From assembly GCA_964556475.1 (NCBI GenBank), contig CAZKVU010000002.1, forward strand, positions 12,271-76,270: a stretch of 64,000 nt of DNA. Direction: 5' to 3'. The stretch is from an uncultured Gammaproteobacteria bacterium (GTDB lineage Bacteria; Patescibacteriota; Microgenomatia; UBA1406; HO2-37-13b). Both the position numbers and the translations under genes were made by a program. How positions within the stretch are numbered: position 1 is the first letter of the stretch; each line of letters begins with the position of its first letter. The notes beneath the pieces were generated by a model. The model saw only the letters and a list, made by a program, of their open reading frames with translations. It made no database searches and was not told the DNA's origin. Below, in pieces: positions 1 through 52,194 of the stretch.

Positions 1-20
1 AAGCGCTCCAAAAACTCGCA

Positions 21-135
21 GGATTCAGTACAATATAGCGGATTACCGCTGAAGTTGGAGTACCAACTATAGCGAATTATCGCTGAAGTTGTAGTACCAA
101 CTATAGCGGATTACCGCTGAATCGAGTACAATATA
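21..135. repeat. 34-bp tandem repeat, three units (34-67, 68-101, 102-135) plus a partial unit at 21-33. Each unit carries a 5-4-5 inverted repeat (AGCGG-ATTA-CCGCT).
   Basis: Direct reading. Units 1 and 2 differ at 3 positions. Two of these are the paired positions of the inverted repeat (G41/C46 becomes A75/T80). The array may continue upstream of the window edge. Confidence 0.85.
127..132 (+). promoter_or_regulatory. Putative -10 element (TACAAT) 10 nt upstream of the secA ATG
   Basis: TACAAT at 127-132 with the ATG at 143 and no SD. The 12-mer AGTACAATATAA (125-136) recurs identically at 47203-47214 upstream of yvcK. Confidence 0.4.
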
Positions 136-142
136 AACCTCT

Positions 143-3025
143 ATGTTAGGATTTGTAAAAAATCTTTTTGATTATAACCAAAAGGAACTGAACAGAATAC
201 AGAAAATTGTTGATCAGATAAATCTTCTTGAGGATGATGTTCGTGACCTTAAAGACGCTGACTTTAAAAAGGAAACAGAGAAACTTAAGAAACAGGTTCA
301 GAGCGGAGAGAAAACATTAGATGAAATCCTCCCATGGGCTTATGCTCTCGTTCGAGAAGCATCTCGCAGAGTACTTGGTCTACGACACTACGATGTTCAG
401 CTTATTGCTGGTATTGCACTTCATGAAGGGAAAGTCGCAGAGCAGAAAACTGGTGAAGGTAAAACATTGTCAGCAACTGCGCCGCTTTATCTTAATGCCC
501 TTATGGGGCGTGGAGCTCACCTAGTAACTGTTAACGACTATTTAGCCCGTCGTGATGCCGGCTGGATGGGACAAGTATATGACTTCCTTGGTCTGACAGT
601 TTCGGCAATGATTTCTGAGAAGTCATTTAGCTTTGATGCTGAATATTTTGACGAAACCGCTTCTGATTGGAGATTAATTCATCTAAAACCACTCGAAAGC
701 AGAAAGGAAGCCTACCTTGCCGATATAACCTATGGTATTAATTCAGAATTTGGATTTGATTATCTTCGCGACAACATGGCAAAAGAGCCTGAAAATGTTG
801 TACAGCGTGATTTTTACTTTAGCATTATCGATGAGGTTGATTCAGTCCTTATTGATGAAGCCCGAACTCCGCATATTATTTCTGCGGCAATAGAGCAAGA
901 TGTCTCAAAATACTACGATTATGCGAAAAATGTTGAGCGATTAGATGATACAGATTATATTCTGGATGAGAAAACACGAACTGCACATTTAAATGATAAA
1001 GGAATTGAAAAACTGGAAAAAATGCTCGGATATTCAAATATTTATGAGCAAGATTATGAGGCTTTATACCATGTAGAAGCTGCGCTTAAGGCACGAACTT
1101 TATTTAAGAAAGATAAAGACTATATCGTTCGCAACAACGAAGTCATTATTGTCGATGAATTCACTGGTCGCTTATTAGAAGGCAGAAGATTTTCAGAGGG
1201 ATTGCATCAAGCCATCGAAGCCAAAGAGCGAGTCGAAATTAAACGAGAGTCAAAAACATTAGCAACCGTCTCTTTGCAGAATTACTTCAGAATGTATGAC
1301 AAGCTGGCAGGTATGACCGGAACAGCGTCCACAGAGGCAGAAGAATTTAATAAGATATATAAACTCGAAACGCTCGTAATCCCGACACATATTCAGGTTA
1401 CTCGTAAGGATCTTGCCGATCTTATTTACAAAACAGAAAGAGGCAAGTTTACTGCATTGGTAGATGAGATTGCACAAATACACGCAGAAGGTCGACCAGT
1501 GCTTGTTGGAACAAGCGCTATTGATAAAAACGAGCTTTTGTCACGTTTGCTTAAAAAGAAAGGTGTTACTCATGAAGTCCTTAATGCAAAAAATCATGAA
1601 CGAGAGGCACATATCATTGCAAATGCTGGAAAAAAAGGTGCAATTACAATTGCAACCAACATGGCTGGCCGTGGAGTTGATATTGTGCTTGGTGGTGAAA
1701 CGCCTAATAAATTCGAACGAAATACCGAGGATGATTCTGACAAAACGCGAAAGAAAATGGAGAAGGCGTACGAAGATGCCAAAAAGGAATGGCAGAAACA
1801 GCACGATGAAGTAGTAGCACTTGGAGGTTTGTATGTTATTGGTACAGAGCGTCATGAATCGCGACGTATCGATAATCAGCTAAGAGGTAGAGCAGGTCGT
1901 CAGGGTGATCCAGGCACAACCCGCTTCTTTGTTTCTCTTGAAGATGATATGATGCGTATTTTTGGAGGTGAGCAAGTTGCAAAGATGATGGATTTCTTCA
2001 AACTCCCTGAAGATCAACCGCTTGAGCACATGATGGTTTCTAAAGCATTGGAACAGGCTCAAACAAAAGTTGAGGGTCACAATTTTGATATTCGTAAGCA
2101 TTTGGTTGAATATGACGATGTTTTGAACAAGCAACGCGATATTTTGTACAAAATGCGTCAAGCGATATTGTTTGCAACCCCTGAGGATCCGAAACATCTT
2201 GAAGAAGAAATCGAACGAGCATTTTCAGAGCAAGTCGAGAATTTACTGAATATGTATGTTTTTGTTGAAGCCGAGCCAGATTTCGATAAATTTGCAGCAG
2301 AACTCGATGTTATTTTACCTGCTAGTGCTGACAAACTTATAGAAACAATACAATCTTCTGTCACAAGTCGTGAAGATGCAGCTGAAATGGCCCTGAAGAT
2401 GTTTAAAAAGCTTTATTCCGATCGTAGAAAGGAAGTTGGTAATGAGGTATGGACACAAGTTGTTAAATTTATCTTCTTAGATATTTCAGATAAGTTATGG
2501 ACAGATCATCTAACGGCAATTGAGGATTTACGCCAAGGTATTAACTTGCGTGGATATGCGCAGCTCGATCCATTGACAGAATATAAGAATGAAGCCTTTT
2601 CAATGTTTGAAAAATTGTTGAATGACATCAGCTTTGATTTTGTCCGTCGCATTTTCCAAATAAAAGTCACTGATGAACAAGCTGTAACGGAGCAGATGAA
2701 GGTTTCAGTTGCTGAAGATGCTGTGTACTCTGCTGCTGAACAAAAAAATTCGCTCAAAGAGCCGGAACCTGTTCGGATGTTAACACAACAGGAACCACAA
2801 TACATTGAAGATGCTGAGATTGTCAGAGAACCTGAACATGAAGAGCACAAGCATCATGAACATCACCATAATCACGATCATAGCCATTCCCATGATGAAA
2901 ATGATCAGCAACAATTCGGATTCAAAGTAACAGCTCCGGGCCAAACCGTCAAAAAACCAGATAGAAACGATCCATGCTGGTGTGGGAGCGGGAAGAAGTA
3001 TAAGAAATGTCATTATCCAAACTAG
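143..3025 (+). CDS. secA: Preprotein translocase ATPase SecA
   Basis: 960-aa ORF with a Walker A-like QKTGEGKTL and a DEAD-like IIDEVDSVLIDEARTP. The C-terminal CWCGSGKKYKKCH zinc-binding tail is typical of SecA. Confidence 0.95.
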   Translation: MLGFVKNLFDYNQKELNRIQKIVDQINLLEDDVRDLKDADFKKETEKLKKQVQSGEKTLDEILPWAYALVREASRRVLGLRHYDVQLIAGIALHEGKVAEQKTGEGKTLSATAPLYLNALMGRGAHLVTVNDYLARRDAGWMGQVYDFLGLTVSAMISEKSFSFDAEYFDETASDWRLIHLKPLESRKEAYLADITYGINSEFGFDYLRDNMAKEPENVVQRDFYFSIIDEVDSVLIDEARTPHIISAAIEQDVSKYYDYAKNVERLDDTDYILDEKTRTAHLNDKGIEKLEKMLGYSNIYEQDYEALYHVEAALKARTLFKKDKDYIVRNNEVIIVDEFTGRLLEGRRFSEGLHQAIEAKERVEIKRESKTLATVSLQNYFRMYDKLAGMTGTASTEAEEFNKIYKLETLVIPTHIQVTRKDLADLIYKTERGKFTALVDEIAQIHAEGRPVLVGTSAIDKNELLSRLLKKKGVTHEVLNAKNHEREAHIIANAGKKGAITIATNMAGRGVDIVLGGETPNKFERNTEDDSDKTRKKMEKAYEDAKKEWQKQHDEVVALGGLYVIGTERHESRRIDNQLRGRAGRQGDPGTTRFFVSLEDDMMRIFGGEQVAKMMDFFKLPEDQPLEHMMVSKALEQAQTKVEGHNFDIRKHLVEYDDVLNKQRDILYKMRQAILFATPEDPKHLEEEIERAFSEQVENLLNMYVFVEAEPDFDKFAAELDVILPASADKLIETIQSSVTSREDAAEMALKMFKKLYSDRRKEVGNEVWTQVVKFIFLDISDKLWTDHLTAIEDLRQGINLRGYAQLDPLTEYKNEAFSMFEKLLNDISFDFVRRIFQIKVTDEQAVTEQMKVSVAEDAVYSAAEQKNSLKEPEPVRMLTQQEPQYIEDAEIVREPEHEEHKHHEHHHNHDHSHSHDENDQQQFGFKVTAPGQTVKKPDRNDPCWCGSGKKYKKCHYPN

Positions 3026-36845: not shown

Positions 36846-38027
36846 ATGTGGCAATCACTTAAAAATATATACCATCTCAGCGGCGCAATTATAGCGAGCA
36901 TTATATATGGCTTTCCTAGTAAAGATCTTAAAGTCATTGGCGTAACAGGAACTGATGGTAAGACAACAACGAGTCATATGATTTATCATATCCTCAAAGA
37001 ATCGGGTCGAAAAGTTTCGCTTACTTCCTCAGTTTATGCTGATATTGCGGGTGATATTTCTGATACCGGACTTCATGTTACAACTCAAAGCCATTGGGAT
37101 ATTCAGAAAAATCTTCGTAAGGCAGCTCAGCATGGAGATGAATTTTTTGTACTTGAAACAACATCTCATGGTATTGATCAACACCGAAATTGGGGAATCA
37201 AGTATGTGGCAAGTGCGTTGACAAATGTAACGCATGAACACCTTGATTATCACAAAACGTATGAACGCTACCTGTCCACCAAAGTGAAGCTACTTCTGGC
37301 ATCAAAAGTTTCAGCCGTTAATATGGATGACAGCTCATACTCCCTTGTTAAAGCTATACTTGACAAGCATCAACATTCATTTAAGACGTATTCTCTGACA
37401 AAAACCTCAGCCGACTTAAATTGGGATCAAGCCCATATTTCATCACATCTCGATCAAGATTTTAATAAACAGAATATGCTGGCTGCCTATTTGGTCTGTA
37501 GGGAAATTGGAATACCAGAAGAAGATATTCGATCATCATTAGAAACATTTACGTTGCCAAAGGGAAGGTTTGAGCTTGTATACGATGGTGATTTTAAAGT
37601 CATGATTGATTTTGCGCATACGCCACATTCTATTCGCACGTTACTCCAGACTCTTAAAAAAAATACTCAAGGTAGAATTATTCATGTTTTTGGATCTGCT
37701 GGCCTAAGGGACTATAAGAAGCGACCTGATATGGGGCGGGCTAGCGCTGAATACGCTGATATTGTCATTCTAACAGAGGAGGATTACAGGACCGAAGATA
37801 TAGAAAAAATTAATAATGCAGTTGAGCTTGGCTTCAAAGAGCAGGGTTTTTCAGCTTATACTATGATTTCGGACCGTCAGGAGGCCATAAAACATGCAAT
37901 TGAGCTCGCTGGCAAACATGATGTGGTTGTGCTAACCGGTAAGAGCCATGAAAAGAGCATTGCTCGAGGTAAAAAGGAGTATCCATGGGATGAGTTTGAA
38001 GCTGTAAGGAAAGTTTTACCCAAATAG
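36846..38027 (+). CDS. murE: Mur ligase, MurE-like, lacking the N-terminal UDP-binding domain
   Basis: The P-loop GVTGTDGKTTT already appears at aa 32. LETTSHGIDQHR, TNVTHEHLDYH and DFAHTP motifs are present. EEDYRTED replaces the DNPR-type motif. Confidence 0.6.
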   Translation: MWQSLKNIYHLSGAIIASIIYGFPSKDLKVIGVTGTDGKTTTSHMIYHILKESGRKVSLTSSVYADIAGDISDTGLHVTTQSHWDIQKNLRKAAQHGDEFFVLETTSHGIDQHRNWGIKYVASALTNVTHEHLDYHKTYERYLSTKVKLLLASKVSAVNMDDSSYSLVKAILDKHQHSFKTYSLTKTSADLNWDQAHISSHLDQDFNKQNMLAAYLVCREIGIPEEDIRSSLETFTLPKGRFELVYDGDFKVMIDFAHTPHSIRTLLQTLKKNTQGRIIHVFGSAGLRDYKKRPDMGRASAEYADIVILTEEDYRTEDIEKINNAVELGFKEQGFSAYTMISDRQEAIKHAIELAGKHDVVVLTGKSHEKSIARGKKEYPWDEFEAVRKVLPK

Positions 38028-38793: not shown

Positions 38794-39458
38794 TTATTCT
38801 GAACAAAGATAATTATTTTACTTCTAATACTTTCTCAAAAGAAGTCTTGAATGGATTTGGGACTATTAACTCCATTGAGCTTAGCCGTGTCACCTCGCTA
38901 CAGGGGTATAACCGAAAACACATGTCACAGATTCATAGTGGAGACATACATGAAGTACGCGATGAGGCCGAAAGTATGCAAGAATGTGATGGCCTGTTTA
39001 CTAATAAAAAAAACATAGCTCTCCTTATTAAAACCGCAGACTGTCTGCCTGTTTTGTTTTATGACCCTGAAAAAAAATACATTGGAGCAGCTCATGCCGG
39101 TTGGAAAGGAACTGTTGCTAGAATTTGTGAGAACATGATACGCATATTTCATTCACATGGGAGTTTGTTGCAGAATATTAAAGTAGCTATTGGGCCGGGA
39201 ATCGGCGCTTGTTCTTATGACATTTTCGGTGAAAGAATGAAAATTATTCAATCTGCATTTCCACAGTGGCCAGAAGCATATCAAAACAATAAGTTAAATT
39301 TACTCTTGCTTAATTACCGACAGATGATTTCACAAGGAATAAGCCCAAACAATATTGATTATTTTCCGTTTTGCACAGCATGTGATTCTCAACGATTTTA
39401 TTCGTATAATAGAGATAGAACCTCCGACAGAATGTATAGTTATATAGCGCTAAAATGA
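38790..39458 (+). CDS. pgeF: Peptidoglycan editing factor PgeF / YfiH (DUF152, laccase-domain) family
   Basis: QIHSGDIHEV, CDGLFT, KTADCLPVLF and AAHAGWKGT motifs. Confidence 0.75.
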   Translation: MIILNKDNYFTSNTFSKEVLNGFGTINSIELSRVTSLQGYNRKHMSQIHSGDIHEVRDEAESMQECDGLFTNKKNIALLIKTADCLPVLFYDPEKKYIGAAHAGWKGTVARICENMIRIFHSHGSLLQNIKVAIGPGIGACSYDIFGERMKIIQSAFPQWPEAYQNNKLNLLLLNYRQMISQGISPNNIDYFPFCTACDSQRFYSYNRDRTSDRMYSYIALK

Positions 39459-40864
39459 GCTCACATCAAAACATATATCTTGTAGGAATAAAGGGTGTCG
39501 GTATGACGTCACTTGCTCTCTATCTTAAATCGCGAGGTAAGAATGTATGGGGCTCTGATGTTGAGGAGGTATTTCCTACAGATTCAGTACTGCATGAACA
39601 TAATATTAAGATTCTCAATGGATTTTCTGAGGACCACATAACTGATGATATTGATCTTCTAATTACAACAGGAGCTCATGGTGGATTGAATAACAAGGAG
39701 GTTATTCAGGCACGTGACAAAGGTATTCATGTTATGACTCAGGCTGAAGAAGTCGGCCATATTATGCAGTCATATAAAACATCGATCTCTGTTTGCGGAA
39801 GTCATGGGAAAACAACAACGAGTTCAATGCTGGCATTTGTATTGAATAAGCTTGGATTATTTTCAAGTCATATTATTGGTGCTCCAGACTTTTCAGGTCT
39901 ACCAGGAGGATTATTCAAAGGTGAAGAGTACCTTGTTGCTGAATCAGATGAATATGTGAATTCACCTGGCATTGATAATACACCTCGATTTCTCTTTCAG
40001 CACCCAACACATATTATTTGTACAAATATCGAGCACGATCATCCCGATGTGTACCCTGACCTTGAGAGTGTTGAAAAGGCTTTTTCAGATTTTTTCATAC
40101 AATGCGATAAAGATGGTGGAACTGTCATATTCAATGCTGATGCTGAAAATGTTGTGCGATTATGTTCATCGCTTACATCTGCAATTTCAGTTGGATATGA
40201 CGAAAATGCAACTTACCGAATCTCTGACGTTGAGCAACAGGAACGAGAAACAGTTTTTACCCTTATGAAAGGGAATGAGGATATCGGAACCTACACTGTT
40301 TCAGTTCCTGGTAAGCACAATGTATTTAACTCAGCCTGTGTTGTTGCTCTTTGTCATCTATTAGAGTTTGATATGGAGAAAGTTCAGATGACATTAAGAC
40401 GTTTTGAAGGGGCTAGAAGACGTTTTGAAATAAAATATCGGAAGGGAAATACATATCTAATTGATGACTATGCACATCATCCAACAGAGCTTCATGCTTT
40501 GATTGAGGCTGCTCGATCGCGATTTCCTGATAGAAAAATTATTTTACTTTTTCAGCCGCATACATATTCACGAACTAAGGAACTGTTCTCAGAGTTTATT
40601 GAAGCATTATCACATGCTGATATATCGTATGTTTTTGATATTTTTGCTTCAGCACGAGAGGCGACAGATAATTCTGTGAGTTCTCAGCGGCTTTGTGATG
40701 AAGCACATTCAAAAGGCTACGATCATATTCGATATGTTCCACAAGGTGAAATTGAATCCATACTCCAGAATTCAATCAAGGAGAACAATATTGTAATTAC
40801 TGCTGGAGCCGGAGATATTTATCAGCATCACCCTGCTATAATAGGAATAATTTCACAGCTGTGA
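39455..40864 (+). CDS. murC: UDP-N-acetylmuramate--L-alanine ligase
   Basis: IYLVGIKGVGMTSLA Rossmann N-terminus, GSHGKTTTSSM P-loop, and DDYAHHPTE. Confidence 0.9.
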   Translation: MSSHQNIYLVGIKGVGMTSLALYLKSRGKNVWGSDVEEVFPTDSVLHEHNIKILNGFSEDHITDDIDLLITTGAHGGLNNKEVIQARDKGIHVMTQAEEVGHIMQSYKTSISVCGSHGKTTTSSMLAFVLNKLGLFSSHIIGAPDFSGLPGGLFKGEEYLVAESDEYVNSPGIDNTPRFLFQHPTHIICTNIEHDHPDVYPDLESVEKAFSDFFIQCDKDGGTVIFNADAENVVRLCSSLTSAISVGYDENATYRISDVEQQERETVFTLMKGNEDIGTYTVSVPGKHNVFNSACVVALCHLLEFDMEKVQMTLRRFEGARRRFEIKYRKGNTYLIDDYAHHPTELHALIEAARSRFPDRKIILLFQPHTYSRTKELFSEFIEALSHADISYVFDIFASAREATDNSVSSQRLCDEAHSKGYDHIRYVPQGEIESILQNSIKENNIVITAGAGDIYQHHPAIIGIISQL

Positions 40865-41801: not shown

Positions 41802-43376
41802 TTATTGATTCACCTTGAATAAGGTTATTTCCTTTCCAGAGTAAAGTACCTCAGTTTTCTGTTTGATTTTTTTAGAGTAGCCTGAGATGGAGCTGTCGAT
41901 TGTTAAATAATCTATACCATTTGTAAATTCCTTCGGATATTGAGCCTTGGTATCACAAATACTGGTTATTTTTCTAAACTCAATAACATGAGGTGAAAAA
42001 AAGAAATGACCATAAGGTGGCTTCTGTGATGTAAGAGCGGAAATGGCATACTCGAAATCACCGCTCATTAAGGATTCATTACAATCTTTAAGATATAAAA
42101 AAGTACCGCTTGGCTCTTTTTTTAGCAATTCAATTATATGTGCTTGATCTTGTGTAAGTATTGATGGAGCGCGATGTTCGATAAGGAGAGATTCAGTGAT
42201 TTTATTAACTGCAATCATATTATCGAGAAGACCAATGGCGAGGCAGAAGTACAAGAATATATTAATTGCCTGTTTCCATTTTAAATCTGCTTGACTGAGA
42301 AACACAGAAGCGACAATGACGAGGAACATAAATGGATATGCACGAGACCAATGCGCAGGCTGAGGAATTTTATTAGTAACAATAAAACTAAAACTCATAG
42401 CAACACAAAAAATGGCCACCGAAGCAAACATAAAGACCTTTTGTCGATCATACTTATGGTGAGTTTTGTAGGAGGTAGCCAATCCAATGATCAAGAGCGC
42501 CACAGGAAACGACAGAGCTATGAGATATGTAAGCGGCTGAACTACAAAGTTAGCATCGAGATAAATTTTATTCAAGAAAGCAGCATCAAGAGAGTGCTGC
42601 GGTAGGAAAACCGCATAGAGGTAGCTTGATCCAGCCGTTAGCATAATAATGCTGATAATTTCAGAAATATATAACTGCAGATTTTTTTTCTTCTCAAAAA
42701 TTATTGGATATGCTATCCATGCAGCAATAGCGACACCAAATGTAATTGAGGTGAAAGGGTGAAGCAATGCTAAAATTGAAGCAATAACAAGCAAAATTTT
42801 CCTTTTTTTATTCACGAGCGCATACAATCCCATAAAGAAGATTGCATGGTACATTATCTCTACCGAAGTGATCTGATTGAGCAAATTATTAAGTCCCCAC
42901 CAAGCAGTGTTAATCGCCTGGTTTCCATATGTAATATTAAAATATATTGCTATAAAACTCATTCCTCCACCAAACAGCATGAGTGCAATTTCCTGCCACT
43001 TCAATTTAAGATTTTCGGCGATACGAAGTAAAAAGTACGTCGACAGGTAGAGCCAAAATGAGCTCATTGCTATATCAAATGTAAAAAGATTTTTGCTAAA
43101 TAATGGATAAAATGGCATAAGAAAAAGAGCATTTAGACTAAAAAGTGAGGGCTGCTGGTCAAAGGTTCCAAAAGGGTTATGGAAAAGGATGCCATTTCCA
43201 GCTCTAAAAAGTTCTTGAACAAAAGAATAATGATAAAAGCCATCGTATGAAATAAGACCCCCATCAACAAATCCATGAGACTCGAAGGAGTTATGAAGGA
43301 AAAAGCGGACTGCTAAGTAGACGAACACAGAAGTTATTGCCCAAAGATGTATCGAATAACGTTTCATTGGCTTCAT
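41802..43376 (-). CDS. Polytopic membrane protein with a C-terminal soluble domain, unknown function
   Basis: 524 aa with more than 10 predicted TM helices by eye. It is the only reverse-strand gene inside the dcw/PG super-cluster. Confidence 0.5.
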   Translation of the reverse strand: MKPMKRYSIHLWAITSVFVYLAVRFFLHNSFESHGFVDGGLISYDGFYHYSFVQELFRAGNGILFHNPFGTFDQQPSLFSLNALFLMPFYPLFSKNLFTFDIAMSSFWLYLSTYFLLRIAENLKLKWQEIALMLFGGGMSFIAIYFNITYGNQAINTAWWGLNNLLNQITSVEIMYHAIFFMGLYALVNKKRKILLVIASILALLHPFTSITFGVAIAAWIAYPIIFEKKKNLQLYISEIISIIMLTAGSSYLYAVFLPQHSLDAAFLNKIYLDANFVVQPLTYLIALSFPVALLIIGLATSYKTHHKYDRQKVFMFASVAIFCVAMSFSFIVTNKIPQPAHWSRAYPFMFLVIVASVFLSQADLKWKQAINIFLYFCLAIGLLDNMIAVNKITESLLIEHRAPSILTQDQAHIIELLKKEPSGTFLYLKDCNESLMSGDFEYAISALTSQKPPYGHFFFSPHVIEFRKITSICDTKAQYPKEFTNGIDYLTIDSSISGYSKKIKQKTEVLYSGKEITLFKVNQ

Positions 43377-48574: not shown

Positions 48575-49612
48575 ATGTCAAATTACCTCGTCATCTTTTT
48601 TCTTTCCTTTATCCTAAATTTTAGTTTATTTATTCCATTCATCAATCTGTTGTATCGATTGAAATTTCAACGAGTATCGCAAGAAACCAGGGATGCCTTT
48701 AACAAGCGCACGCCAATTTTTGACAAGTTTCATAAGCATAAGGTCGGAACTCCTGTGGGAGGTGGCATACTTATCATACTTACAACACTATTTGGATTTA
48801 CGCTATCAACAGTTATTTTTACGCTTATCGACCAAAGAATTATTTCGAATTATCCATCGATTACCTCAGAAATTAAGATACTATTGTTTACTTTTGTTTC
48901 ATTTTCTTTACTTGGATTATATGATGATCTTAAGAAAATTTTTATCTGGCAAGATGAGACTTTTTTTGGACTTCGTTTAAGGCATAAACTTATCGTTGAG
49001 ATTATATTAGCGGTCATTGTCTCTTACTGGATGTTTGCCGAATTAGATATTTCAATTATATATATTCCGTATTTTGGTGTTTTTAAACTTTCGTGGCTCT
49101 TTATCCCATTTGCAACATTTGTCATAGTCGCCTTTTCAAATGCTGTAAATATTACCGATGGACTGGATGGATTATCAAGCGGTGTACTGCTCGTTGCCCT
49201 TTTTGCTTTTTGGGCCATATCTGTATCAATTCTTGATACGCCACTGCTCATATTCATCGCCGTTTGGACAGGTGGCTTAATAGCCTTTTTATATTTTAAT
49301 GTTCACCCTGCTCGTCTTTTCCTTGGCGATACAGGGGCGCTTGCATTTGGTGCTACATTTGCTGTTATTGGTTTGTTATTAGGTAAAGTTTTTGCTTTGA
49401 CGATCATAGGTGGATTGTTTGTCATTGAAATTGGATCATCATTTTTACAACTTATTTCCAAAAAATACCGTGGAAAAAAATTGTTCCCTGCGGCTCCTTT
49501 ACACTTACTTCTTCAGTACCGAGGGTGGGAGGAACCTAAGATTGTAATGAGGGCATGGGTTGTCTCCATATTGTTTGCAGTATTCGGTTTGATGATTGCA
49601 TTTTTGAAATAA
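48575..49612 (+). CDS. mraY: Phospho-N-acetylmuramoyl-pentapeptide transferase
   Basis: NAVNITDGLDGL and GDTGALAFG motifs, with 10 TM-like segments. Confidence 0.92.
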   Translation: MSNYLVIFFLSFILNFSLFIPFINLLYRLKFQRVSQETRDAFNKRTPIFDKFHKHKVGTPVGGGILIILTTLFGFTLSTVIFTLIDQRIISNYPSITSEIKILLFTFVSFSLLGLYDDLKKIFIWQDETFFGLRLRHKLIVEIILAVIVSYWMFAELDISIIYIPYFGVFKLSWLFIPFATFVIVAFSNAVNITDGLDGLSSGVLLVALFAFWAISVSILDTPLLIFIAVWTGGLIAFLYFNVHPARLFLGDTGALAFGATFAVIGLLLGKVFALTIIGGLFVIEIGSSFLQLISKKYRGKKLFPAAPLHLLLQYRGWEEPKIVMRAWVVSILFAVFGLMIAFLK

Positions 49613-49634: not shown

Positions 49635-50975
49635 ATGGATAATAAGACGTTCATTTTTGACAGCATTGAAATAAGTGAAGGCGACAGTCAGATAAAGCTT
49701 CATTACGCATATGAGGAAAATCATCAGCAGACTGTTAATTTTACAGAAACGCTATCTTTGCCTTCGGATATTGACATTTCGCAGTTGCCGCAATCACTTC
49801 TGGAAGGGCTTCATATCATATGCGGAGTAAGCTATTACAAACTGTACTGCCCAAAGAATATTGAAATAAGGAATTTTAAATTGACTCGGGATCAAGCAAG
49901 TTTTTGGAATACTGTATATACAAAGGGCCTCGGTGAATTTTTTTTCAAAAACAATTTGGATTACAGAGATCATATCAATTTTCCGTACGACGAAAATGTC
50001 ACAGCACATAATGCTTCACACTCACCCATGGAGGAAAAGGCACTTGTCACTATCGGCGGGGGTAAAGATTCCATCGTGAGCCTTGAATTGGTAAAAAAAA
50101 CTAATATTGATTTCGATCTTTTTGTCATGAATAAACACAGCATTATGCAGGATGTCGCAGATGTTGCACAAAAAAAACTTTTTACAGTACAACGGACTAT
50201 TGATTCAAAACTTCTGGAATATAATTCATTGCCAAATACATACAATGGTCATGTGCCAATTTCGGCAATCTATGCCTTTGTATCGCTTCTTTACGCATAC
50301 GCTGGAAAGTATTCATATGCTATTTTTGCTAATGAACGCAGCAGTAATTATGGAAACGCAGAATATTTAGGTGAAACTGTCAGTCATCAATGGAGTAAAT
50401 CACGAGAATTTGAAGATATGTTCCGTGATTACACAAAAAAATACATCTGTACAACAATTGAGTATTTTTCACTCGTTCGACCATTATATGAAATTGGCAT
50501 TGCAAAAATATTTGTAAAGTATCCTCAGTATTTTTCCGTGTTTTCGAGCAGTAATCACAATTTCAAAATGAATAATCAAAATTCCCAGAAATGGGACGCC
50601 CAATCAGCAAAAACGGCTTTCACATACTGCTTATTAACTGCAATGCTTCCTAAGAGTGTAATGATCGAAATATTCGGTCAGGATTTATATAGCATTCCGG
50701 AACTAAAGGGAATCTTCAGGGAGCTGCTCGGACTTGAAAAGATCAAACCTTTTGACTGTGTGGGAACACCAGATGAAGTGAAAGTGGCTATGTATCAAGC
50801 CTTCCAAAAAGGAGAGTATAGAGGAAGCTTTATGATGGACATGTTCGAAGCGGATGTTCTACCAACTCTCAGTTTAACTATTGAGGATTTAATAAAAGAG
50901 GTGTTTTCTTTCGGAAACGCAGATAATATTCCTGTAAGGTTTTTGAAAGTTCTCACAGATACTTATGAAGGTTAG
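49635..50975 (+). CDS. Uncharacterised 446-aa protein with a PP-loop-like GGGKDS motif; overlaps the murD start by 11 bp
   Basis: LVTIGGGKDSIVSLE resembles the SGGxDS ATP-pyrophosphatase loop. It has no TM and lies between mraY and murD. Confidence 0.6.
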   Translation: MDNKTFIFDSIEISEGDSQIKLHYAYEENHQQTVNFTETLSLPSDIDISQLPQSLLEGLHIICGVSYYKLYCPKNIEIRNFKLTRDQASFWNTVYTKGLGEFFFKNNLDYRDHINFPYDENVTAHNASHSPMEEKALVTIGGGKDSIVSLELVKKTNIDFDLFVMNKHSIMQDVADVAQKKLFTVQRTIDSKLLEYNSLPNTYNGHVPISAIYAFVSLLYAYAGKYSYAIFANERSSNYGNAEYLGETVSHQWSKSREFEDMFRDYTKKYICTTIEYFSLVRPLYEIGIAKIFVKYPQYFSVFSSSNHNFKMNNQNSQKWDAQSAKTAFTYCLLTAMLPKSVMIEIFGQDLYSIPELKGIFRELLGLEKIKPFDCVGTPDEVKVAMYQAFQKGEYRGSFMMDMFEADVLPTLSLTIEDLIKEVFSFGNADNIPVRFLKVLTDTYEG

Positions 50976-52194
50976 GGAATTAGCCCAGCATAAAAAGATT
51001 TTAATCGTTGGCTACGGTATTGAAGGAGAAGCCACGCGTCGATTTCTTGATGTGTTTCATCCAGAAGCATATGTGACTATTGTTGATCAAAAAGATGGAA
51101 GTGATTATCTAAAGGCGCAAGGAGAATATGATCTGGCGATTAAGTCTCCAAGTGTTCGTAAGGAACAGCTCACTATACCATATACAACAGCAACAAACCT
51201 TTTTTTTGCGAATTGTACAAGCTTCACTATTGGAATTACAGGTACTAAAGGTAAGAGTACGACAGCTACACTACTGCATCAGTTATTAATAAAGCATAAC
51301 AAAAAGGCATTTTTAGCAGGAAACATTGGTAAACCAATGCTTGATTTACTTACGAATAAAGAAATTGAGGATGGCGATTATGTTGTTCTCGAACTATCAA
51401 GTTATCAGCTAGATGATATTCAGTATTCACCAAATATCTCTATTATTCTAAACATCGACGAGGCACATTTGAACTATCATGATACTTTTGAAAATTATAA
51501 AAAAGCAAAACTCAACATTGTCTCGCATGCCTCACCAGCAGATTTCTATATATATAATGACGCAAGTGCAGGATTAGCTGATGTACAAACAAAGGCACGC
51601 AAATTCCCATTCACACATTCATCTTTAAAGCACAACGCTATTCATCAAGATACCATCAGCTCTTTAGTAACATGCTCGCATATTCTCGGGTACTCAGAGA
51701 ATGATATCGAGGAAGTCTTGAGTAATTTTACGAACCTGCCTCACCGACTTCAAAATATTGGAGAGCACAACGGGATTACTTTTATAGATGACTCTGCGTC
51801 AACAACTCCATCCGCCACAGTATTTGCGCTGCAGTCATTTAAAAATATAGAAACACTTATTTGTGGTGGTATACGAAGAAATCAGTCGCTCGAGGAAATC
51901 TACGAAGCAGTGACTAAAGCTGGTGTTAGATATGTTGCTGTCTTTCCAGATGTTGCTCAGGATTTAATTGAGTTGTTTAATAACAAGGGTAACCGTACGG
52001 AAATACAGGAAGTTCAAACTATGAAAGATGCAGTTTCATTCGCATTTAAACATACTCAATCCGGAAATATCTGTTTGCTTTCGCCCGGCTTTGCAAGCTA
52101 CAATATGTATTCTGGATTCCCTGCAAGGGGAGATGATTTCCAGAAATGTGTGAAAGAATACTCAATAAATCATGCGGAGACACCTCAAACGTAA
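50965..52194 (+). CDS. murD: UDP-N-acetylmuramoylalanine--glutamate ligase (MurD family)
   Basis: KILIVGYGIEGEA Rossmann N-terminus, GITGTKGKSTT P-loop, and DDSASTTP. Confidence 0.88.
   Translation: MKVRELAQHKKILIVGYGIEGEATRRFLDVFHPEAYVTIVDQKDGSDYLKAQGEYDLAIKSPSVRKEQLTIPYTTATNLFFANCTSFTIGITGTKGKSTTATLLHQLLIKHNKKAFLAGNIGKPMLDLLTNKEIEDGDYVVLELSSYQLDDIQYSPNISIILNIDEAHLNYHDTFENYKKAKLNIVSHASPADFYIYNDASAGLADVQTKARKFPFTHSSLKHNAIHQDTISSLVTCSHILGYSENDIEEVLSNFTNLPHRLQNIGEHNGITFIDDSASTTPSATVFALQSFKNIETLICGGIRRNQSLEEIYEAVTKAGVRYVAVFPDVAQDLIELFNNKGNRTEIQEVQTMKDAVSFAFKHTQSGNICLLSPGFASYNMYSGFPARGDDFQKCVKEYSINHAETPQT

Follow-up and report, generated by a model that had tools for sequence, protein, structure and literature searches.

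A MurL-like gene coupled to murD as a probable racemase-independent source of D-glutamate in a patescibacterial genome

Introduction

The closest described counterpart of the locus analysed here is the MurD2/MurL pathway (Feng et al. 2017, as reviewed in PMC8788868 and PMC5808125). In these two reviews, the Xanthomonas enzyme is described as using one ATP and forming AMP, with adenylation of the Glu alpha-carboxylate proposed, and as a protein that "lacks known conserved domains"; the hosts listed there are confined to certain Gamma- and Alphaproteobacteria and to rare actinomycetes, with low-similarity matches in a fungus, cyanobacteria and an amoeba (PMC8788868, PMC5808125). For the partner ligase, residues E197 and R358 of Xanthomonas oryzae MurD2 (corresponding to D182 and K348 of Escherichia coli MurD) control stereospecificity, and the E197D/R358K exchange turns it into an enzyme for D-Glu (PMC8788868).

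In the route through MurI and canonical MurD, free glutamate is racemised reversibly and without a cofactor, whereas the inversion proposed for the window (the whole stretch of 64,000 nucleotides of DNA that was analysed) would take place after ligation, would use ATP and would run one way. QueC, an enzyme whose fold turned out to be relevant here, converts an adenylated carboxylate first into the amide and from there into a nitrile, and it binds Zn via a Cys4 motif.

The MurL/MurD2 system as such is known, and databases already hold family models and some correct names. Among the papers open to our search, none linked MurL or murI to CPR/Patescibacteria. In this work, we analysed a gene at positions 49635-50975 of the window, which very probably encodes MurL, an ATP-using enzyme that epimerises L-Glu to D-Glu on the cell wall precursor. 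We consider it likely that this MurL and the adjacent MurL-linked MurD together make a racemase-independent route to the D-Glu of peptidoglycan.

The murL-murD locus

The window comes from an assembly of 928 kb in 34 contigs that is 89.7% complete. It contains ftsI, murE, pgeF, murC, murB, murA, mraY, murD, ftsW, murG, ftsQ and ftsA within 64 kb, and a murF-like gene lies outside it, elsewhere in the same genome. The initial annotation had described a 446-aa ORF between mraY and murD, the last 11 nt of which overlap the murD start, and had set it against a canonical order in which murD follows mraY without an insert. The position of the ORF was confirmed by the ORF list and by the Pfam and NCBIfam matches of its neighbours, the overlap was confirmed in the sequence, and E. 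coli, in which murD comes directly after mraY, agrees with the canonical order. The mraY stop and the start of the murL-like ORF are separated by 22 nt, and the murD ATG sits within ...ACTTATGAAGGTTAG... at the murL end. The murD product scored above the TIGR01087 cut-off of 212 bits and carries both the Mur_ligase_M and the Mur_ligase_C domain. The coordinates of all features are collected in Table 1.

Two other features of the block were also seen. The murE product of the window has just 393 aa and its TIGR01085 match begins at model position 72, which suggests that the greater part of the normal N-terminal domain is missing. A 524-aa ORF (41802-43376, minus strand), which had no match in the NCBIfam scan, lies between murB and murA in the otherwise plus-strand mur/fts block.

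Table 1 Features of the murL-murD locus and of the proteins it encodes (positions of the window; residues where a feature is given on the protein)
Feature	Position	Strand	Detail or basis
murE	36846..38027	+	TIGR01085, 348.7 bits, above cut-off
murC, maker of the UDP-MurNAc-L-Ala used by MurD	39455..40864	+	TIGR01082, 389.5 bits
mraY, upstream neighbour	48575..49612	+	PF00953 (Glycos_transf_4), E 8e-32
murL-like ORF	49635..50975	+	446 aa, ATG start, TAG at 50973-50975
N-terminal beta/alpha domain of the murL-like protein (predicted)	residues ~1-125		AF2 model
QueC-like PP-loop core of the murL-like protein (predicted)	residues ~130-330		AF2 model, Foldseek
C-terminal helical domain of the murL-like protein (predicted)	residues ~335-446		AF2 model
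PP-loop GGGKDS, residues 141-146	50055..50072	+	predicted ATP alpha-phosphate/pyrophosphate-binding loop
Former Cys4 site: S306, H308, D321, S324, T327	50544..50615	+	alignment of 221 homologues
KPFDCVGTPDE motif with invariant Cys375	50745..50777	+	C375 in 221/221 homologues
Overlap of 11 nt, murL stop/murD start (translational coupling)	50965..50975	+	ORF list, sequence
murD, 409 aa, MurL-linked (MurD2-like) clade	50965..52194	+	TIGR01087, 273.5 bits
MurD Ala167 at the E. coli D182 position	51463-51465	+	residue alignment
MurD Arg305 at the E. coli K348 position	51877-51879	+	residue alignment

The ORF belongs to the MurL family

The initial annotation had named a MurL-type epimerase as one candidate, and a profile search agreed with this. 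The ORF matched NCBIfam model NF041275 (MurL_Xanthmoales, UDP-N-acetyl-alpha-D-muramoyl-L-alanyl-L-glutamate epimerase) over its full length at E 1e-92, with residues 4-441 aligned to positions 8-444 of the 447-position model. Its score of 311 bits falls below the equivalog cut-off of 700 bits, and this cut-off was reached by none of the 61 genomes of the order (the genome of the window included) and by none of the 301 genomes of our phylum sample. Because the model is named for and tuned on Xanthomonadales, the lower score limits the claim of an exact equivalog but not the claim of family membership.

The Pfam scan of the ORF gave no match, because the Pfam copy that was used lacks PF26298 and PF26299. 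The idea of an orphan protein was rejected on the same ground. A search of a collection of 5.8 billion proteins found 4700 relatives at E<1e-5, and precomputed PF26298 and PF26299 annotations were present on every relative among the matches listed. Named relatives came from Roizmanbacteria, Levybacteria and Microgenomates, and JGI gives some of them the MurL enzyme name. An exhaustive search of 50%-identity representatives found 2371 clusters at E<=1e-3, of which 1065 reached E<=1e-30, and at least 587 species-level genomes had a relative.

The window protein thus resembles the NCBIfam model of Xanthomonas MurL along its whole length (446 aa against 447 model positions), its gene lies upstream of and adjoins a gene for a MurD-family ligase, and its genome is likewise without murI and D-amino-acid aminotransferase. 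It differs in score (311 against 700 bits) and in its host, which is a Patescibacteria member of about 0.9 Mb (Microgenomates-type) and not a proteobacterium or an actinomycete.

A PP-loop core with a QueC-like fold

The ORF contains LVTIGGGKDSIVSL, in which the initial annotation had seen a likeness to the PP-loop of ATP pyrophosphatases. The loop (G141-S146) is at least 95% conserved among 221 homologues. When the family profile was compared with the PDB, it matched the SGGKDS PP-loop of TtuA at E 0.004, over that loop only, and the PDB sequence search returned no MurL structure. An AlphaFold2 model built from 41 homologues reached a pLDDT of 93.5 and a pTM of 0.92. In the Foldseek comparison of this model with the PDB, QueC came out on top (3bl5, E 6.6e-4, probability 1.0, target-normalised TM-score 0.61; also 2pg3), followed by the QueC-like Cap9 and then by the PP-loop enzymes MnmA, TtuA and NcsA. 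The same comparison matched no structure to the N-terminal domain (residues ~1-125) or to the helical C-terminal domain. Since the fold and the TtuA loop alignment agree, the guess of a PP-loop was right, and the conservation of the loop points the same way. Judged by the model, a carboxylate-adenylating type of ATP pyrophosphatase forms the core at residues ~130-330. Such a predicted fold is compatible with AMP formation and fits the ATP-to-AMP stoichiometry reported for Xanthomonas MurL.

QueC and MurL have in common the fold core, which is the best structural match, and the carboxylate-adenylating PP-loop chemistry. The differences are that no QueC sequence model was among the NCBIfam matches, that MurL is extended by an N-terminal domain of about 125 residues and a C-terminal one of about 110, that the first PP-loop residue is Gly in MurL and Ser in QueC, and that the genomic context of the window is cell wall synthesis and not queuosine.

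In the motif around Cys375, K371, P372, V376, G377 and E381 show a conservation of at least 95% across the 221 homologues. As an invariant residue, Cys375 is a candidate for the general acid/base that exchanges the C-alpha proton. All positions with at least 95% conservation are kept in the window copy except for N250S, and the nearest relatives have N250S too. The invariant residues retained are the PP-loop, H206, E234, H251, Q252, K255, E260, R282, N307, K326, K371, C375 and E381.

The window copy has lost the Cys4 site of the family

The window copy differs from most members of the MurL family in one site. It reads SSSNHNF...WDAQSAKT where most homologues read SSCNxNF...WCGxCPKC. In the 221 sampled homologues, all four Cys were present in 193, none in 27 and three in a single partial case. 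The window MurL is one of 20 rows that form a wholly Cys-free clade (SH-like support 99) spanning several genera; S306 and H308 are present in 20/20 of its members, and position 321 is acidic, mostly Asp. This clade nests in a 30-row clade of its own GTDB family, the remaining members of which retain the cysteines. At least three further lineages are independently without the cluster, again with all four Cys gone together.

An hhalign comparison of MurL with E. coli QueC gave a probability of 7% and a weak local alignment, which placed the CxxCxxC on C197/C200/C203 of QueC, residues that we take to be Zn ligands. The Cys4 site of the family is probably a Zn site as well, and the C...CxxCxxC cluster that QueC and most MurLs share is missing from the window copy. 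Because the loss is all-or-none and the other invariant residues are kept, the site is most likely structural and dispensable for catalysis, and the window copy would be functional. If the Cys4 site were catalytic, however, the window copy would be impaired or altered.

The absence of all four cysteines that 193 of the 221 homologues keep could also be read as a sign that the gene is a decaying, non-functional remnant of murL, left after the loss of its metal site. We regard this as highly improbable, because the reading frame is intact and gives a confident model, the other conserved residues and the murD overlap are retained, and the replacement residues are themselves conserved across the 20-member clade of several genera. 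The losses are also all-or-none and recur in independent lineages, as would be expected for a dispensable structural metal site.

murL and murD form a conserved unit

A strong MurL match was found in 34 of 60 relatives of the same order. In 29 of these 34, murL either is immediately followed by murD on the same strand or forms a fusion with it, and in two murD lies further downstream, at 175 nt (G048) and 1633 nt (G008). Of the other three, G002 and G017 have a contig that ends before murD, and for G024 no gap length was obtained. The murL/murD junctions, as inferred from the predicted frames, are overlaps of 4 nt at 16 loci, of 11 nt at three loci and in the window, and of 14 nt at two loci; four loci have a gap of 2-6 nt, and three have a single frame of 834-888 aa. 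Fusions of MurL and MurD are accordingly present in 3/60 relatives, and among the best 150 cluster representatives, about 21 have a length of 795-894 aa, as such fusions do.

The initial annotation had tied its proposal to synteny with murD in other genomes, and this was found well beyond the order. The locus sample consisted of the best 80 named genomes from the genome search, which were all Patescibacteria and included Roizman-, Levy-, Woese-, Moran-, Peri-, Peregrini-, Gracili-, Uhr-, Falkow-, Staskawicz- and Taylorbacteria. A murD homologue was directly downstream of murL on the same strand at 72 of the 74 assessable loci. Adjacency of mraY and murL was also considered as a conserved feature and was rejected, as it occurred at 5 of 73 assessable loci. 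The murL-murD pair is a conserved unit, and its place after mraY is a local arrangement.

In G008 (L014:1800-3375, C2), the 1633-nt gap between murL and murD contains genes for a P-loop NTPase (202 aa) and a kinase-like protein (325 aa), and these two inserted genes interrupt a coupling that is tight elsewhere.

The MurD partner

The MurDs adjacent to murL had 36-48% identity to the window MurD, while the MurDs of MurL-less genomes of the same order had 26-33%, no higher than E. coli MurD. In the MurD tree, 31 MurL-linked rows fell on one side of a branch with a support of 89 (30 rows and a support of 97 without G037), and the MurL-less MurDs of the order formed a separate clade with a support of 100. 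At the K348 position, Arg was found in 34/34 MurL-linked MurDs and Lys in 23/23 MurL-less order relatives covering the position, which means that in all 57 of these MurDs from one order, the choice between Arg and Lys goes with the presence or absence of MurL linkage. At the D182 position, the linked MurDs have Glu in 21 cases, Asp in 12 and Ala in the window, so the Glu of the MurD2 E197 position is absent from the window MurD.

The window MurD and MurD2 are alike in belonging to the MurD family, in the coupling of the gene to murL and in the Arg at the R358 position, and they differ at E197, P433 and F435, where MurD2 has Glu, Pro and Phe and the window MurD has Ala, Ala and Tyr. Arg at the K348 position is likewise seen in streptococcal MurD, which is specific for D-Glu and in which the D182 residue is non-acidic, so the determinant residues of the window MurD are compatible with MurD2 but are no proof of it. 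From its clade, its context and the missing racemase, we infer that the window MurD would be specific for L-Glu.

The Cys-free lineage, which is new, and the Ala of MurD at the D182 position are the only features that set the window copy apart. The two together might mean that the chemistry has shifted in the Cys-free clade, and that MurL amidates the adenylated Glu, or acts on another stem residue, instead of epimerising; we think this unlikely.

The murL and murD trees disagree in one place. The window MurD groups with genus g4 (G003, G014, G022, G019) with a support of 96, and the window MurL groups with G005 and P0003 in the Cys-free clade, which excludes the Cys4-bearing MurLs of G003, G014 and G022 (window 49635-52194 compared with L011, L018, L024 and L021). 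This discordance suggests recombination within the murL-murD pair, or tree error. In G024 there is a second murD beside the linked one (G024:C23:14945-16261, L043), which scores 413 bits, clusters with the E. coli sequence and is located on a contig of 18.6 kb, and this copy could come from contamination or transfer.

D-Glu supply and the distribution of racemases

Peptidoglycan is expected to be made by this organism because mur/fts genes are present in the window and the genome, and MurE requires a substrate that contains D-Glu. The initial annotation had noted that no glutamate racemase was present in the window. The genome-wide check for murI or a D-amino-acid aminotransferase was also blank: glutamate racemase (TIGR00067), Asp_Glu_race (PF01177) and Aminotran_4 (PF01063) had no match in the 89.7%-complete genome (34 contigs). 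The two outcomes that would have spoken against the proposal were therefore both absent, since the ORF is similar to MurL and to PP-loop folds with no murI found, and its homologues are syntenic with murD.

We then compared the distribution of MurL and racemase across genomes. In the same order, a PF01177 match was found in 5/35 MurL-positive and 16/26 MurL-negative genomes. In the phylum sample of 301 evenly drawn Patescibacteria genomes, the numbers were 9/46 and 117/255. MurL was present in 46 genomes of the phylum sample (15%) and neither enzyme in 138, and in the order of the window MurL reached 57%. Racemases are clearly depleted in MurL-positive genomes, though not to the point of exclusion, and genomes that are related do not count as independent observations. 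Within the order, relatives use either a MurI or a MurL cassette; as a strict rule for the two enzymes, mutual exclusion was rejected, because both occur in 5/35 MurL-positive genomes of the order and 9/46 of the phylum.

On the other side, assembly gaps or host salvage could account for part of the racemase absence, because the genome is 89.7% complete and has no recognisable alanine racemase (no match to Ala_racemase_N, PF01168). This bears on a possible use of the same PP-loop chemistry for amidation, in which a MurL-family enzyme would adenylate the alpha-carboxylate of the stem Glu for ammonia or another nucleophile, giving isoglutamine or similar, and D-Glu would come from the host or the environment. 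The nearest solved folds are indeed QueC enzymes, the lack of an alanine racemase hints at D-amino-acid salvage and favours amidation slightly, and the loss of Cys4 with the Ala of MurD at D182 could mark a functional shift. But the full-length match is to MurL and no QueC model matched, the other family-invariant residues are kept, and the MurDs linked to MurL, with their MurD2-type Arg, stand in a clade of their own. Racemase depletion in MurL-positive genomes also fits an alternative source of D-Glu and not an amidase, and under amidation the organism would have no D-Glu source of its own. We consider it very unlikely.

It is also quite unlikely that MurL is a true epimerase which only proofreads, repairing L-Glu mis-ligated by an ordinary D-Glu or dual MurD. 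The ambiguity of the determinants would allow this, as the Arg is common to streptococcal D-Glu MurD and the Ala stands in place of the MurD2 Glu, and so would the genomes in which MurL and a racemase occur together. It is opposed by the lack of a D-Glu-forming enzyme in the 89.7%-complete genome, by the Lys/Arg split that matches MurL linkage in 57/57 MurDs of the order, by the separate clade of linked MurDs and by the gene fusions, which argue for an obligatory two-step pair.

Some further observations concern the same enzymes. The sole D-Ala-D-Ala-ligase-like match in the genome is a 675-aa protein with two ATP-grasp domains (L153:645-2672, corresponding to G000:C6:18144-20171). Distant MurL-like paralogues (E 1e-6 to 1e-12, frames of 464-514 aa) are present in relatives, at G012:C1:40305-40994, G045:C12:7508-8464 and G059:C1:99115-100044 and also in G029, G035 and G055, and in three paralogue-bearing genomes both a true MurL and a match to Asp/Glu racemase are missing. 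In the MurL-less genome G056 (C3:513118-515048, L068), a racemase-family gene is directly downstream of a canonical murD, and this murD-murI cassette mirrors the murL-murD cassette.

Discussion

The full-length NF041275 match, the fold, the synteny with murD and the absence of racemase together support the MurL-type epimerase. In the pathway that we propose, UDP-MurNAc-L-Ala would be made by MurC and L-Glu would be added by the MurL-linked MurD. The PP-loop of MurL would then adenylate the alpha-carboxylate of the terminal L-Glu with release of PPi, as suggested by the fold and by AMP formation in Xanthomonas. The activated C-alpha proton would be exchanged, with Cys375, His206 and His251 as candidate bases, and MurE would extend the resulting product. 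The overlapping stop and start codons would keep the murL and murD products in fixed proportion. MurL and MurD probably act as a complex, because relatives fuse both genes.

In this way, a "hypothetical protein" annotation is replaced by that of a very probable supplier of D-Glu, which would explain how a wall can be built in a genome without glutamate racemase. The predicted QueC-like PP-loop core supports the adenylation mechanism proposed for the family, and the recurrent all-or-none loss of Cys4 suggests that this site is outside the catalytic machinery. The Cys-free clade would be at least a natural metal-free form of the enzyme. The known system is extended here, and the spread in Patescibacteria, the fold and the Cys4 data may be useful for work on the mechanism or the inhibitors of MurL.
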